A stretch of 64,000 bases of DNA from Ostreococcus lucimarinus (GCA_000092065.1 CP000600.1); one strand, 5' to 3'. Counted from the stretch's first letter, positions 22,080 to 26,800 are shown. Translations and numbers: made by a program. The notes: generated by a model not told the origin, from the letters alone.

Positions 22080-22511
22080 CCACCGCGCGCGTCCCGCGGT
22101 CGTCTCCCGCGCCCCGCGCCCGATCTCGCGTTCGTTTCCGCGCGCGCGCGAGATTTAAAATTATCCCGCGCCCCGTCCTCGCGCCGCCGTCCTCGCCCGA
22201 TCCCGCGCGCGCGCGTCCCTCGTCCGTCGTCGTCGCGCGCGCGTCGCTAGGGTCGTCCCCGTCGTGACGTCGCGCCGCGTTCGCGGTCGCTCGCGTCGTC
22301 GTCGCGCACCTCTCGTCGCTGCGCGCGCGCGCCGGCGGTGGCGGTAAATCTCGTCGTCGTCGTCGTCGTCGTCGCGTGCATCGCGTCGATCGCGTCGCGC
22401 GTCGCGGTGTCCCAATCGCGTCGCCGCGCGCGACGCCCGGCGTCGCCGAGCGAGACCTTCCCGTGAACGCGCCACACGGATCTTTTGAGACCACGAGACG
22501 GCGACGTCCCG

Positions 22512-22549
<38 letters not shown>

Positions 22550-22586
22550 CGCGCAGACGACGACGCGCGCGCGGACGACGGGCGCG

Positions 22587-23519
22587 ATGTCCGCGCACGC
22601 GGTGACGGCGACGACCGCGAGCGATGGGACGTGCGCGACGACGGACGAGCCGAGCGAGTGCGCGTCGAGGAAGCGCGGACGCGGTGGCGCGACGGCGACG
22701 ACGACGAGCGAACGCGACTGCGGGACGAGGGACGGACCGGAGTCGAGCGCGGGACAGGGGACGACGCTGTATAAGCGACGACAGCGACAGGCGCGGAGAA
22801 GCGTGAATGGACGAGAGTTCGCGCGGCGATTGATTGATTTTCGAGGATTTGACTTGAGCGAGACGCAGGCGAACGACATCGCGCGGTTTATTGAATTGTT
22901 GCCGGAGGAGATGGAAGAACGCGTGCGTGAGACGCTGGAGAATTGTAGTGATATTGATGATGCGATCGGGAAGCTGGCGAGCGTGAAGATGGTGGAGCAG
23001 ACGGCGCAGTGCTCGGTGGGCGATTTCGTGAGCGAGGCGGCGATCTCCGAGGCGGCGAATAGCGCGGGAGGCGAGGGGAACGCGGGAGATGTTGGTGAAC
23101 GCGAAATGGGGACGGCCACGTCGAGCGCGCCCGTGTTGACGATGGAGTGGGTAAACGCGATCGTGAACGAGATGGGAGCCTCGGTGGACGTGTCGGATGC
23201 GCAGAATCGCGCTTCGCGAGTCTTGCAAACATTTGAGGGCGCCGTGAGACAGAGATGCGCGGAGTTTAACGATTATAGCAAAGTGATGAAGATGAAGCGA
23301 GAGAACGCTTTGTTGAAGCGTGCGGTGGCGATTCAGAACTCACGCATGCAAGACTTGGCGCCGCTTCAGGCCCGCGTGCGCGAACTCGAAGCCGCGTGCG
23401 CGCAGTACGACGACAGGCTCAAGACGGCGGAGAGACAAAATTACTCGCTCAGCGTCAACTTAAGGCTCGCTATGGCGGAACAGTCGCCGTTTGGTTCGAA
23501 AAACCACGATGTATTTTGA
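22587..23519 (+). CDS. CUE-domain-like / coiled-coil protein (plant 'ubiquitin system component Cue' type)
   Basis: The first ATG is at 22587; the track ORF starts at a TTG. The block MEWVNAIVNEMGASVDVSDAQNRASRVLQTFE is followed by a coiled coil (KRENALLKRAVAIQNSRMQDLAPLQARVRELEAA), as in plant Cue proteins. Recognised from memory only. Confidence 0.5.
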   Translation: MSAHAVTATTASDGTCATTDEPSECASRKRGRGGATATTTSERDCGTRDGPESSAGQGTTLYKRRQRQARRSVNGREFARRLIDFRGFDLSETQANDIARFIELLPEEMEERVRETLENCSDIDDAIGKLASVKMVEQTAQCSVGDFVSEAAISEAANSAGGEGNAGDVGEREMGTATSSAPVLTMEWVNAIVNEMGASVDVSDAQNRASRVLQTFEGAVRQRCAEFNDYSKVMKMKRENALLKRAVAIQNSRMQDLAPLQARVRELEAACAQYDDRLKTAERQNYSLSVNLRLAMAEQSPFGSKNHDVF

Positions 23520-23606: not shown

Positions 23607-25334
23607 TTATACTTGCGACGTCGTCGCGTCGTCGTCGTCCTGGCGCCATCCCGGTGGACCTCTAAGGTATCGAAACGTGATATTGATTCGTTCTTTTCCG
23701 TTCGTCGGGACGCGATTCTTCGGCACCGCGTGATAATGAGTGTGCTGCAAGGAACCGTCCATCACCATCAGCGAGCCGTGCTCGAGAAAGATTGATGTCT
23801 TCTTCTTCGCTCGAGATTTCACCTGAACGTCAAACTTTCTCGTGTGACCGACGCTCACGGCCGCGATACACGCGTTTTTACCGAGTTCGGGTTCGTCATC
23901 GGCGTGAAACGCCATGGAATCGTCCCCATCGCGATAACGATTTAAAAGTATATGGTTGAACGTCGCGCCGCATTTCGCCTCAACCGCGGTCTGCAGGCGG
24001 CGCAACACCTCAGGCACGGGTACCGGATCGAGCGTCTGGCCACTATATTTGTACGGTAGATCGCCCGCCCACGACACGAGTCTCGGTTGGACGACTTCTT
24101 TCGTGACGCCTTTGTCGGGTTGCCAAACGACGATGGAGCGCTGCGCCCATGTCACGGGCGGCGACGACACGAGGCTAGACAACAGTTCGTTCGCCGCGTC
24201 TTCGTCGAGGAATTGACGACAAATGCCTAATCTCCCATCGGACTCCTCTGGGTCGACGACTTTGTACACTAACTCGGTCGGATTGTCGTCGAATCCTTCG
24301 AAACTGCTAACGATTTGCCGCTCGAGTTCCGCCTCGACGTTGCGTCGCTGTTCTTCCACGTTCACGCCGAAAAATTCGAGCAAAATCGCTTCCATCTCGT
24401 CGTAGTGCGCAACATCTTCCCGTAATCGTGAAACAGCGACGGCGTCGCCCGCGTCCGCGAGCCGCTCGAGTCGCGTCAAGTTTAGGCTCGACTGCCTGCG
24501 CACCTCGCGAACCCATTCCAGACGTTTTTTGACGTACAACTTGAGCAACGGCGACTCTTTCGGAGATTGTGCGCCCAAACACGGGCCTATGATTTCATCT
24601 CTCATCGTGAACGGTCGTTTCGTCGCAGCCGTCTCGTTCTCCGCGCACAGAATCAGATGCATCGTTCCGTTTTCCACGACGAGCCGCTCGTCGACGACGC
24701 GATAGTCGTTCGCGCGCAACCATCGACGCACTTGCGCGCCATCTTTCGCCGGCGGATTCAACACTACGCGCTTTAAACTTCCGCGTCGGTTTCCCGACCC
24801 CCCACACCCGCCCTCCTCGAGCACGCGCGCCATGGTATTCGCCCCCACGCCCGCGACGACCAAGACGTCGACGCGCTCGTCGTCCCGCAGCGCCGACAAC
24901 CCGTCGCCCAGTCTCAAATCCACCGTATCCACCGCCGCGCCATCACCGCCGACCATCTCCACTTCTTTTTTCGCCCTCGCCACGTTCTTTTTCGCGCGTT
25001 CAATCTCCGCCTCGCTTCGATCGATCGCGACGACTCGCGTCGCGTTCGCCTCGGACGCGCAGCCGAGCGCCAGCAGCGCGTGTCCGCAGCAGCAATCCAC
25101 CACGACGCCCTCCCCGTCGCCGTCTTCGATCGCGCTCATCGCTCGCAGCGCTTGCAACCGAGACGACCACGCCCACGACGCCGCGCGCGGGACGTCGTCG
25201 CGGTCGAGCGCGGGCGCGTCCGGGGCGTCGCGCGCTCTGAACCGCGCGCGCGCGTCCCCGCGGCGGCGACGTCCCGCCGCGCGACGAGGCGTCGACGTCG
25301 ACGTCGCGCTCGACGCGCGCGCGCTCGACCGCAT
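23607..25334 (-). CDS. fusion protein: TrmK-like tRNA (adenine-N1) methyltransferase fold + AlkB (ALKBH2/3-type) Fe(II)/2-oxoglutarate dioxygenase (575 aa)
   Basis: Taken from the ATG at 25334 within track ORF 23607..26306. TrmK landmarks are SSRLQALRAM, VVDCCCGHALLALG, AIDRSEAEIERAKKNV, RLGDGLSAL, VLVVAGVGANTMARVLEEG, LKRVVLNPP and VRRWLRANDYRVVDERLVVENGTMHLIL. AlkB landmarks are LLNRYRDGDDSMAFHADDEPELG, GSLMVMDGSLQHTHYHAVPK and ERINITFRYL. There is no stop between the halves. The ORF portion above 25334 is antisense to MAD2. Confidence 0.8.
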   Translation of the reverse strand: MRSSARASSATSTSTPRRAAGRRRRGDARARFRARDAPDAPALDRDDVPRAASWAWSSRLQALRAMSAIEDGDGEGVVVDCCCGHALLALGCASEANATRVVAIDRSEAEIERAKKNVARAKKEVEMVGGDGAAVDTVDLRLGDGLSALRDDERVDVLVVAGVGANTMARVLEEGGCGGSGNRRGSLKRVVLNPPAKDGAQVRRWLRANDYRVVDERLVVENGTMHLILCAENETAATKRPFTMRDEIIGPCLGAQSPKESPLLKLYVKKRLEWVREVRRQSSLNLTRLERLADAGDAVAVSRLREDVAHYDEMEAILLEFFGVNVEEQRRNVEAELERQIVSSFEGFDDNPTELVYKVVDPEESDGRLGICRQFLDEDAANELLSSLVSSPPVTWAQRSIVVWQPDKGVTKEVVQPRLVSWAGDLPYKYSGQTLDPVPVPEVLRRLQTAVEAKCGATFNHILLNRYRDGDDSMAFHADDEPELGKNACIAAVSVGHTRKFDVQVKSRAKKKTSIFLEHGSLMVMDGSLQHTHYHAVPKNRVPTNGKERINITFRYLRGPPGWRQDDDDATTSQV

Positions 25335-25524
25335 GGTCGACGCCGCGACGCGCCGGCGCCCGCGAGCGCGCGACGTCGGCGTGTGCGCGGCGTCGCGAGG
25401 GCGACGGACGCTCGCGCTCGACCTCGACGTCCAGGCGCCGACGTCGAGCGCGGGATCGGTTTGAATCGAAACCGCAGTGAAACGCGCGCTCGAGCGCGCC
25501 GACGCCGCGACGCTCGAACGCGAC

Positions 25525-25893
25525 ATGGCGCAAGAGCAACGGCGCGGCGCGACGTCGAGCGCGATCACGCTCCGAGGGTCGACCGAGCTCGTGACGGAGT
25601 TTTTCGGGTACGCGGTGAACACCATCTTGTACCAGCGCGGGGTGTACCCGGCGGAGGAGTTTGAACGAAAGAAAAAGTACGGACTCGGGGTGATGGTGAC
25701 GAACGAACCGAAATTAAAGGAATACTTGGTCGCCGCGCTCGAACGCGTGAACGCGTGGTTGATGGAGAAGGATTTGAAAAAGTTGGTGCTGGTGCTCGCG
25801 GACGCGAAGACTGGGGAGACGCTGGAGCGCTGGACGTTCGACGTGGAGACGGATGCGGAGATCGTGGATGAGAACGGTGGTGATGCGAACGGA

Positions 25894-25943
<50 letters not shown>

Positions 25944-26208
25944 GGAGAAGCCGGAGAAGGAAATTATGCAAGAGATACAAGCCATCATTCGGCAAATCAC
26001 GGCTTCGGTGACGTTTTTGCCTCTGCTCGATCGCGAGTGCGCGTTCGAACTCTTGGCGTACACGGACGCGGCGAGCGCGACGCCGGAGGAGTGCGAAGAG
26101 AGCGATCCGAAGTATGTTCGAGACGGCGTCGAGATGCGGTTGCGTTCGTTTAGCACGAAGATCCATACCGTCGACGCGGGGGTGTCGTACAAGACGGAGG
26201 ACGACTGA
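25525..26208 (+). CDS. MAD2: mitotic spindle assembly checkpoint protein MAD2 (HORMA domain)
   Basis: From the ATG at 25525: MAQEQRRGATSSAITLRGSTELVTEFFGYAVNTILYQRGVYPAEEF, YGLGVMVT, LERWTFDVE, IRQITASVTFLPLL and VEMRLRSFSTKIHTV. It is collinear with human MAD2L1. Confidence 0.9.
25894..25941 (+). repeat. (ACG)16 microsatellite encoding a 16-Thr run inside MAD2
   Basis: Perfect trinucleotide repeat, in frame. It lies in the loop equivalent to human DKTAKDDSAPREKSQK, between LERWxFD and the IRQITA helix. Confidence 0.95.
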
Positions 26209-26407
26209 ACCGCGAGCGAGAGCGACATTTGTAATATCAACCAACGAAGCCGACGCAACGCGCAGCGCGTACGGTGAATGCGGTACGCGCTCGACGCCCA
26301 ATTCAACTCGCATCGTCCGACGAACGCTAAGTCTTTACGTACAAGCCGAAATTAAACGCGCCGACGTCGGCCGGCGCGCGCGACGCGACGCGCGACGTTG
26401 ACCGAGC

Positions 26408-26800
26408 TCACCCCGAATCGGCGTCCGATGTCGACGAAAAGTTAGGACAAGCTAGAACGTGTAACTCTCGTGTCGTCACAAAAGTTTCGGCGACGTTCGC
26501 GCCGTCGAGCGGTGCGAAGTCGCGCCGAACCATCGCGAGCAAACCATCACACACCATCTCAAATGATGCAAAATCCATCATTCGGGCGCTTAAATCGCGT
26601 CCGAATTCGACGAAAAGTTGGGAAAAGCTGGAGAACGAAAAGTTCTCGCCGTCGGCGCGAAAAGCATAAAGAAACCAAGCGATACCGGGGGTTCCTGACG
26701 TCTTCCGACATCGGTACTTATCCGGCCCACGCGGTCTTAACTGAGAAGTTCCGATGGGTTTCTGTGATTTTCCGCGGGTGTGGTCGCTTGATGACACCAT
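26408..26800 (-). CDS. candidate small orphan protein (130 aa), low confidence
   Basis: This is the only protein-like ORF in an otherwise unassigned interval of about 1 kb (MVSSSDHTRGK...GIAWFLYAFRADGENFSFSSFSQLFVEFGRDLSARMMDFASFEMVCDGLLAMV...). Its position fits the local architecture: tail-to-tail with MAD2 and head-to-head with the Ldh_2 gene. It has low GC3 and no recognised family. Confidence 0.3.
   Translation of the reverse strand: MVSSSDHTRGKSQKPIGTSQLRPRGPDKYRCRKTSGTPGIAWFLYAFRADGENFSFSSFSQLFVEFGRDLSARMMDFASFEMVCDGLLAMVRRDFAPLDGANVAETFVTTRELHVLACPNFSSTSDADSG

Follow-up and report, generated by a model that had tools for sequence, protein, structure and literature searches.

What might a single algal polypeptide do that joins a TrmK-type tRNA methyltransferase to an AlkB-type dioxygenase, and is such a polypeptide genuinely encoded? 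The question is raised by positions 23607-25334 of a 64,000-nucleotide stretch of Ostreococcus lucimarinus DNA (CP000600.1), referred to below as the window. A first-pass annotation had proposed that one reading frame at this site fuses a TrmK-type fold, which in bacteria forms N1-methyladenosine (m1A) in tRNA, to an AlkB dioxygenase, and this TrmK-AlkB architecture is borne out by profile hidden Markov model (HMM), sequence and fold searches. Both domains individually belong to textbook families; it is their combination that appears to be new. With respect to function, we tentatively favor, at a probability of roughly 0.45, an organelle-imported tRNA enzyme in which the TrmK moiety would dock tRNA and write m1A and the tethered AlkB domain would remove N-methyl groups.

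The fusion gene is a single open reading frame (ORF) on the minus strand, comprising 575 codons with no internal stop. Translation of this strand, which had not been specified before, confirms the length and continuity given in the first-pass annotation and contains all nine of the motifs quoted there. An independent contig (L001) carries an identical coding sequence (CDS). In all full-length orthologues (one further call is incomplete at its N-terminus) the frame is open across the junction of the two domains, which is conserved as well, at 66% mean pairwise identity. Therefore, neither an intron nor a second gene would have to be invoked to explain the ORF; an intron with a stop had been considered for the stretch at about 24300-24700, where the frame is open here and in every full-length orthologue. 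That adjacent genes were joined by an assembly or gene-calling error, or that an intron with a stop escaped recognition, is hardly credible: the full-length 90%-identity clusters, which derive from numerous independent assemblies and sources, all show the same open frame, and homology is continuous across the junction. One database entry does point in this direction: in P0051 (231 amino acids, from a 458-kb ENA contig of the P0002 lineage), a frame shift interrupts the sequence precisely where TrmK and AlkB meet (...GFEG/SRTRW...). This break is confined to a single contig and most likely reflects a 1-nt assembly indel, but it could also represent a naturally split allele. A read-through artefact is ruled out by the conservation of the frame in many assemblies.

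The gene and the domains of its product are arranged as follows, from the N- to the C-terminus:

23607-25334, minus strand: TrmK-AlkB fusion CDS, ATG at 25332-25334, TAA at 23607-23609, product of 575 amino acids
25245-25334, minus strand: residues 1-30, N-terminal extension of basic character, with many Ser, Thr, Ala and Arg and few acidic residues; putative organelle transit peptide
25173-25244, minus strand: residues 31-54, 'RF+V+..PD.P' segment, common to stand-alone algal TrmK-like proteins
24600-25172, minus strand: residues 55-245, TrmK class-I (Rossmann) methyltransferase domain, contacts to S-adenosylmethionine (SAM) assigned to R59, D80, C82 (main chain), D105, D144, G145 and V163
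24300-24599, minus strand: residues 246-345, helical coiled-coil domain (helices 262-292, 295-321 and 326-344), counterpart of the tRNA-binding C-terminal domain of TrmK
24270-24299, minus strand: residues 346-355, conserved junction (FEGF...), a short segment connecting the final helix of TrmK with the opening strand of AlkB
23640-24269, minus strand: residues 356-565, AlkB Fe(II)/2-oxoglutarate dioxygenase domain, ALKBH3-like or bacterial group-1B-like

Profile-HMM comparison of the 575-residue product places both halves above the Pfam gathering thresholds. The TrmK family matches residues 79-282 (88.4 bits against a cut-off of 27, 6e-25, model positions 2-184 of 205) and 2OG-FeII_Oxy_2 matches residues 370-555 (111.6 bits against a cut-off of 31.2, 7e-32, model positions 3-194 of 194). 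A first AlphaFold2 (AF2) model, calculated from an 11-row alignment, reproduced the TrmK half well and left the AlkB half at a predicted local distance difference test score (pLDDT) below 50. It was superseded by a full-length model from a 75-row alignment, with a mean pLDDT of 90.7 and a predicted template modelling score (pTM) of 0.81, in which residues 1-22 alone are disordered (pLDDT <50). In the 75-row model, the two domains are rigidly coupled as one body, and only about 10 non-regular residues lie between the final helix of TrmK and the opening strand of AlkB.

Which members of the two families are most closely related to the halves of the fusion? In a sequence search of the PDB, the N-terminal half retrieves the TrmK structures 3kr9, 3gnl, 7o4m, 3lec and 6q56 (4e-10 to 2e-8). 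With a profile that includes stand-alone relatives the TrmK structure matches rise to 2e-21, and the whole Rossmann domain is aligned. The top eight Foldseek matches of the 11-row model are all TrmK, with template modelling (TM) scores of 0.73-0.82 after normalization to the target. Bacterial TrmK structures can be aligned to the fusion only from residue ~56 on. The N-terminal half is a complete TrmK, including the coiled coil, which in B. subtilis TrmK (BsTrmK) is required for tRNA binding and activity. Along this half, the following motifs are found:

residues 57-66, minus strand: SSRLQALRAM
residues 78-91 (25062-25103), minus strand: motif I, VVDCCCGHALLALG
residues 141-149, minus strand: RLGDGLSAL
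residues 157-175, minus strand: VLVVAGVGANTMARVLEEG
residues 187-195, minus strand: LKRVVLNPP
residues 202-229, minus strand: VRRWLRANDYRVVDERLVVENGTMHLIL

TrmK (YqfN, COG2384, PF04816), known from B. subtilis, S. aureus, S. pneumoniae and Mycoplasma, is a tRNA m1A22 methyltransferase that needs a purine at position 13. It displays the same combination of Rossmann domain and C-terminal coiled coil, and its motifs GDGL, AG(M/V)G and DE..(V/I).E occur in the same order in the fusion, where Q-P-N corresponds to N-P-P. In contrast to bacterial TrmK, the fusion is encoded by a eukaryote, carries an additional N-terminal segment with a presequence, and is extended at the C-terminus by the AlkB domain. 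Moreover, motif I reads D-x-C-C-G-H-A instead of D-I-G-S-D-H-A, with loss of the conserved Asp29.

Crystal structures of S. aureus TrmK (SaTrmK) have revealed SAM contacts by R7, D22 (via water), the main-chain carbonyls of G24 and C92, E47, D75, G76 and the hydrophobic M94. In BsTrmK, mutation of R9, D78 or M96 cripples activity. These residues were mapped onto the fusion through a profile alignment:

SaTrmK R7 / BsTrmK R9: R59, conserved
SaTrmK D22 / BsTrmK D25: D80, conserved
SaTrmK G24 / BsTrmK G27: C82, contact via the main chain only
SaTrmK E47 / BsTrmK E50: D105, conserved acidic
SaTrmK D75 / BsTrmK D78: D144, conserved
SaTrmK G76: G145, conserved
SaTrmK M94 / BsTrmK M96: V163, conservative change

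All polar SAM contacts (R59, D80, D105, D144 and G145) are invariant or nearly so in an alignment of eleven sequences, whose lineages are 57-77% mutually identical. The family consensus of motif I is D-x-C-[CA]-G-H-A-L, compared with D-[IV]-G-S-D-H-A in bacterial TrmK. The Asp of the bacterial motif (BsTrmK D29, SaTrmK D26) represents the sole conserved candidate general base of TrmK, and the D29A variant of BsTrmK retains partial activity. Since the SAM contacts are kept, D29A is tolerated and the C82 position contributes through its backbone only, the methyltransferase is likely, but not certain, to be competent.

In PDB sequence searches, the C-terminal half retrieves human ALKBH3 (1e-30 or 8e-30, depending on the search), ALKBH2 (3e-21 or 3e-20) and, marginally, E. 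coli AlkB (7e-3), and the same ranking (ALKBH3 > ALKBH2 > E. coli AlkB) describes its closest matches by sequence and by fold. The NCBIfam equivalog cut-offs for E. coli-type AlkB are missed (NF011930 with 38.4 against 267 bits, TIGR00568 with 31.2 against 231 bits). We classify this half as a repair-type, ALKBH3-like AlkB, with the following landmarks:

residues 401-414 (24093-24134), minus strand: IVVWQPDKGVTKEV, hairpin of the nucleotide-recognition lid, lengthened by a 6-residue insertion in comparison with the nearest bacterial AlkBs
residues 475-481 (23892-23912), minus strand: AFHADDE, iron ligands H477 and D479, followed by D480
residues 531-539 (23718-23744), minus strand: HTHYHAVPK, distal iron ligand H535
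residues 549-555 (23670-23690), minus strand: RINITFR, 2-oxoglutarate-binding arginine pair R549 and R555

Aligned to the motifs of ALKBH3 and ALKBH2, the iron triad (H477, D479, H535) and D480 are invariant in 11 sequences, as are the residues binding 2-oxoglutarate (2OG), R549 and R555, together with N465 and Y467 of the N-x-Y-R motif. The complete AlkB active site (H-x-D, distal His and Arg pair) claimed in the first-pass annotation is thus present, all of its residues being invariant. Within the lid, R418, Y428, Y430 and S431 are invariant too and match the DNA contacts R110, Y122, F124 and S125 of ALKBH2. Human ALKBH3 is 41% identical to the AlkB half of the fusion and has the iron triad, the 2OG arginines, the H-x-D-D-E motif and the lid residues in common with it. 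ALKBH3, ALKBH2 and the bacterial group 1B proteins are stand-alone, whereas the AlkB of the fusion is tethered.

The nearest AlkB relatives are stand-alone proteins of ~200-220 amino acids with 46-55% identity, stemming, where the source is named, from Myxococcota, Delta- or Alphaproteobacteria; they appear to match 'group 1B' as defined by van den Born et al., which is ALKBH2/3-like. The fusion and the closest stand-alone bacterial-type AlkBs have a GPPGWR tail after RINITFR in common, which is lacking in ALKBH3. The six-residue insertion in the lid hairpin is found in the fusion proteins alone (W-QPDKGVTKEV versus F-GREV in bacteria), and gives the hairpin a length about equal to that of ALKBH3. 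One of the nearest stand-alone AlkBs adjoins a gene for a dinB-type (Y-family) polymerase. In a bacterial AlkB located beside a dinB-type polymerase (P0202, at 4507-5379 of L014), a tandem duplication of ~100 residues of the jelly-roll core is observed, resulting in a protein of 290 amino acids instead of about 210.

How far is the fusion distributed? The search for the same domain architecture elsewhere, which had been recommended in the first-pass annotation, was run and yields one 50%-identity cluster and a narrow set of lineages. A word-indexed search of 5.8 billion clusters returned ten fusion clusters that are 56-63% identical to the query by BLASTP, with one at 99%. When 1.84 billion representatives at 50% identity were searched exhaustively with a profile, a single cluster contained both halves (949 bits); the next-ranked matches are one fragment and then single-domain proteins, and the longer AlkB matches of this search have no methyltransferase domain. 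No relative of the fusion was found in the IMG/VR viral contigs. In these searches, the fusion turned up only in a narrow set of syntenic lineages with a G+C content of 54-60%, which would fit Ostreococcus-like picoalgae, and it is intact across at least five deep lineages.

The nearest relatives of the TrmK half are stand-alone algal TrmK-like proteins (P0055, P0059, P0060, P0062, P0184 and P0200). These share with the fusion the N-terminal F.VKG.PD.P...AWS.R segment and the motifs LVLNPPAKDA and DERL.VEN; they differ from it in lacking an AlkB domain, in carrying long low-complexity insertions and in a canonical motif I, D-x-G-C-G-H-G. Two of the stand-alone loci were looked up (L012 and L013) and are situated on eukaryote-like contigs with Ank, SET and DEAD-box neighbors. 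The simplest history would be the addition of an alkB of bacterial type to the 3' end of a resident algal TrmK-like gene, in the ancestor of this small lineage. In one of the stand-alone proteins, P0055, residues 345-396 form a DUF7067 segment (PF23229, known from alpha-glucan water dikinase) inserted in the C-terminal helical region, which hints at a plastid or starch-related context for the TrmK-like family.

Does the protein enter an organelle? Residues 1-30 of the fusion have a net charge of +8 and include one acidic residue. After prokaryote-style start calls had been moved to the upstream ATG, all orthologues display an N-terminal extension of 30-51 amino acids, variable in sequence, rich in Arg, Ser, Thr and Ala, almost free of acidic residues and with a net charge of +7 to +10. 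Two stand-alone algal relatives with a called N-terminus possess a basic extension as well, of up to 58 amino acids and net +5. In composition and position, the extension resembles an organelle transit peptide and would act as one. Organellar tRNAs are bacterial in type, and the G13·A22 pair needed by TrmK is typical of class II tRNAs in bacteria.

A comparison of the orthologues shows that every part of the fusion protein is under purifying selection, the methyltransferase core being most relaxed:

TrmK catalytic domain: 58% mean pairwise identity; ratio of non-synonymous to synonymous substitution rates (dN/dS) 0.18-0.46 (four lineages)
coiled coil: 59% mean pairwise identity; dN/dS about 0.16 (a bound, dS saturated)
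junction: 66% mean pairwise identity
AlkB domain: 81% mean pairwise identity; dN/dS at most 0.08 (a bound, dS saturated)

How could the two halves work together? In the favored reading, the Rossmann domain and the helical coiled coil would jointly dock the D-arm and elbow of the L-shaped tRNA, and the TrmK half, by analogy with bacterial TrmK, would methylate N1 of A22 where position 13 is a purine. The ALKBH3-like domain, held rigidly at the end of the coiled coil via the short conserved junction, would oxidize N-methyl groups of the m1A and N3-methylcytidine (m3C) type to unstable hydroxymethyl adducts, which would be lost as formaldehyde. The TrmK module would supply the tRNA affinity that AlkB domains lack, and the dioxygenase would thereby be concentrated on tRNA, where it would clear the docked tRNA of N-methyl groups that are misplaced or harmful. 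The m1A that is meant to stay would be buried in the D-stem and spared by the AlkB domain. Individual steps of this scheme have precedents. In a model of the B. subtilis TrmK-tRNA complex, the coiled coil touches the D- and T-loops, and A22 is paired with G13 inside the D-stem. ALKBH3 demethylates m1A and m3C in tRNA (PMC6411830). In ALKBH8, RNA affinity is provided by the RNA recognition motif (RRM) and not by the AlkB domain, and the fusion channels tRNA between both activities. An AlkB domain is also found beside a methyltransferase domain in viral replicases, and some AlkB homologues of plant viruses remove RNA methylation damage.

To our knowledge, ALKBH8 (RRM-AlkB-zinc finger-Trm9-like methyltransferase) is the only well-studied cellular protein in which AlkB is joined to a SAM methyltransferase, and it likewise acts on tRNA. 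It differs from the fusion in its opposite domain order and in a methyltransferase of the Trm9 rather than the TrmK family, as had been stated in the first-pass annotation and is upheld here. Moreover, the fusion possesses neither RRM nor zinc finger, and ALKBH8 hydroxylates a carbon of 5-methoxycarbonylmethyluridine (mcm5U) to a stable product instead of removing an N-methyl group. Orthology to ALKBH8 is ruled out by clade, domain order and partner. The replicases of Flexiviridae and related plant viruses (methyltransferase-AlkB-helicase-RNA-dependent RNA polymerase) also combine AlkB and a methyltransferase on one polypeptide. However, their methyltransferase is cap-forming, Sindbis-like and unrelated to TrmK, and is part of a large polyprotein; the fusion protein has no Pfam match to the Vmethyltransf, helicase or RNA-dependent RNA polymerase families.

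Several observations weigh against the favored reading. The first glycine of motif I is replaced by cysteine (C82) in every fusion protein, while it is glycine in the stand-alone relatives, and all fusion proteins have G84 in place of the Asp that is conserved in the G-S-D-H-A loop of TrmK (D29/D26). The latter exchange is not caused by the fusion, since most of the stand-alone algal TrmK-like relatives examined have it as well (one keeps the Asp). Identity to bacterial TrmK amounts to only 12-24%, so the target nucleotide may differ, and the evolutionary rate of the methyltransferase half exceeds that of the AlkB half several-fold. A link between TrmK and AlkB in gene neighborhoods is absent from the bacterial and other algal loci examined: no TrmK-like gene lies within ±6 kb of the 80 best bacterial AlkB loci (TrmK-like HMM, E ≤ 1e-3), and no AlkB gene is located near the stand-alone algal TrmK-like genes at the two loci examined. 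Therefore, the fusion itself is the only evidence for functional coupling. That either half is catalytically active, that the two share tRNA as substrate, which position is methylated, which methyl groups are removed and that the protein enters an organelle are all inferences; in addition, the scheme assumes that the AlkB domain acts on RNA and not on organellar DNA, and that it leaves the methyl group placed by the TrmK domain untouched.

The same two activities might alternatively be directed at one site, so that the very mark installed by TrmK, m1A22 or a different m1A, would be taken off again by the fused AlkB domain. The steady-state methylation of tRNA would then report the balance of SAM versus 2OG, Fe(II) and O2, in a manner comparable to PFK-2/FBPase-2 and SpoT. 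TrmK does write m1A, ALKBH3-type enzymes erase m1A, including in tRNA, the rigid coupling in the model goes along with conservation of both active sites, and the fusion-specific hairpin insertion of the AlkB lid could fit a structured tRNA site. However, an unregulated cycle of this kind would waste SAM and 2OG and release formaldehyde, and a regulatory element or sensor domain is not visible in the fusion. Furthermore, A22 paired with G13 in the D-stem, as in the TrmK-tRNA model, would be a poor substrate for an ALKBH3-type enzyme. ALKBH3 prefers single-stranded nucleic acid. It is inactive on double-stranded DNA. Because a D-stem-paired A22 suits a single-strand-preferring enzyme poorly, tethered repair or proof-reading is ranked above the same-site switch, which we consider doubtful; the sequence does not separate the two models. 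That the TrmK half is inert as a methyltransferase and forms a tRNA-binding handle for delivery of the AlkB demethylase or repair enzyme had been suggested in the first-pass annotation on account of the SAM loop. The loop is indeed atypical (C82, G84), the G27-to-C82 change being specific to the fusion proteins, and in addition to D29, which corresponds to G84, M96 is changed to V163. The dN/dS of the catalytic domain (0.18-0.46) is several times the AlkB value, and among the within-species codon differences, three of seven in the TrmK half are non-synonymous, whereas the AlkB half is free of differences altogether; with only 8-9 differing codons, these numbers are too small for a conclusion. 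Nevertheless, R59, D80, D105, D144 and G145 are retained across lineages of 57-77% identity, which would be unexpected if cofactor binding were dispensable, and the position changed from Gly to Cys contacts SAM via its backbone carbonyl only. Active class-I methyltransferases with a residue other than glycine at this first motif-I position exist, as in RsmB/NSUN (D-x-C-A-A-P-G-G), and D29A BsTrmK is still active. With the polar SAM contacts kept, the loop is weaker evidence for a dead enzyme than had been supposed, and a mere docking function of the TrmK half is unlikely.

Equally unlikely is a polypeptide with two uncoupled activities, namely an organellar tRNA methyltransferase and an AlkB repairing organellar DNA or any nucleic acid, which would have only the targeting signal in common. 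The closest relatives of the AlkB half are stand-alone bacterial ALKBH2/3-like DNA-repair proteins, one of them encoded beside a Y-family polymerase gene; an aromatic residue, W404, occupies the position of the base-flipping finger of ALKBH2 and group-1B AlkBs (assigned via alignment to bacterial AlkB, as the ALKBH2 region is unaligned); and TrmK-like and AlkB genes are co-located in no other genome examined. On the other hand, the junction is short and conserved, and the model (pTM 0.81) shows it as rigid, not as a flexible linker; the lid of AlkB has gained a hairpin insertion that is specific to the fusion, and the fusion was kept intact over at least five deep lineages. Finally, a sequential two-step modification, in which the AlkB domain hydroxylates the methyl group into a new stable nucleoside, could be envisaged following the precedent of ALKBH8, in which the attached AlkB domain hydroxylates mcm5U, the product of the methyltransferase. 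Since the fusion keeps the H-x-D-D-E motif of ALKBH2/3, and N1-hydroxymethyl adenine is unstable, so that N1-methylation of the TrmK type would end in demethylation, this course is very improbable.

Has the protein been described before? Automated pipelines already assign both COG labels, and some of the JGI entries among the fusion clusters read 'tRNA A22 N-methylase/alkylated DNA repair dioxygenase AlkB'. Thus, the architecture is catalogued as far as automated labels are concerned, and a characterized function was not found. A description of a TrmK-AlkB fusion was not found among the papers listed for TrmK with AlkB, nor was a mention of TrmK among those listed for TrmK with Ostreococcus, Micromonas or Mamiellophyceae. 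Surveys of AlkB architectures list PHD, SAD/SRA, AT-hook and RRM/Trm9 as partners, with TrmK absent; for the ALKBH3 clade, Iyer et al. 2016 give fusions to PHD, SAD/SRA and AT-hook only, and the TrmK-AlkB fusion is not mentioned by Mielecki et al. 2012. According to reviews, TrmK is without a eukaryotic homologue and m1A22 is confined to bacteria. The gene described here and its stand-alone algal relatives contradict such bacteria-only statements by revealing a TrmK lineage in eukaryotic genomes, which probably serves an organelle.

The pairing places an m1A-forming and an m1A-removing fold on one polypeptide that is modelled as rigid. If the same-site switch were true, it would be, as far as known, without precedent among RNA-modification systems in combining opposing activities in one polypeptide, and would serve an algal organelle as a metabolic sensor that acts on translation. 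Questions that become approachable include the reversibility of m1A in the tRNA core in vivo, the role of AlkB as a true tRNA repair or proof-reading factor, and the targeting of AlkB to structured RNA. Ostreococcus tauri, a member of the likely host group, is genetically tractable. Marine algae are exposed to SN2 methylating agents, for example methyl halides, which form the m1A and m3C lesions that AlkB removes. An AlkB tethered to tRNA could be an adaptation to this exposure.

In the window, the fusion gene is surrounded by the following features:

22485-23519, plus strand: uncharacterized ORF, tail-to-tail with the fusion gene
25335-25476, no strand assigned: head-to-head intergenic region between the fusion gene and the HORMA gene, 142 bp between the start codons
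25477-26208, plus strand: HORMA (MAD2-like) gene, head-to-head neighbor of the fusion gene

The intergenic region of 142 bp (25335-25476) is presumed to be a bidirectional promoter, and the pairing of the HORMA and fusion genes is also kept in three other lineages. Read mechanically, the ORF of the fusion gene extends upstream to 26306 (899 amino acids; 324 further codons). This extension (25335-26306, minus strand) is stop-poor, has a G+C content of 60% and runs antisense to the HORMA gene, and in the sister strain L002 a stop precedes the same ATG by 42 codons, none of which encodes Met. Therefore, it is non-coding, a stop-poor artefact.

The gene order GOGAT-(Ldh_2)-HORMA-fusion-x-L31-tRNA synthetase-phosphofructokinase (PFK) is common to four lineages, with Ldh_2 uncalled in one. 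An origin of the locus from a bacterial contaminant contig is ruled out by the neighboring genes for HORMA, a ~1590-residue Fd/NADH-GOGAT, PFK and 5S rRNA in conserved order. A search with ARAGORN for tRNA genes whose positions 13 and 22 could be inspected gave none in the window (1-64000). The HORMA gene (25477-26208, plus strand) encodes an uninterrupted run of 16 threonines inside the protein. Beyond it, on the minus strand, lies a complete 5S rRNA gene (26674-26791), which matches Rfam RF00001 with 71 bits over model positions 1-120 of 120.

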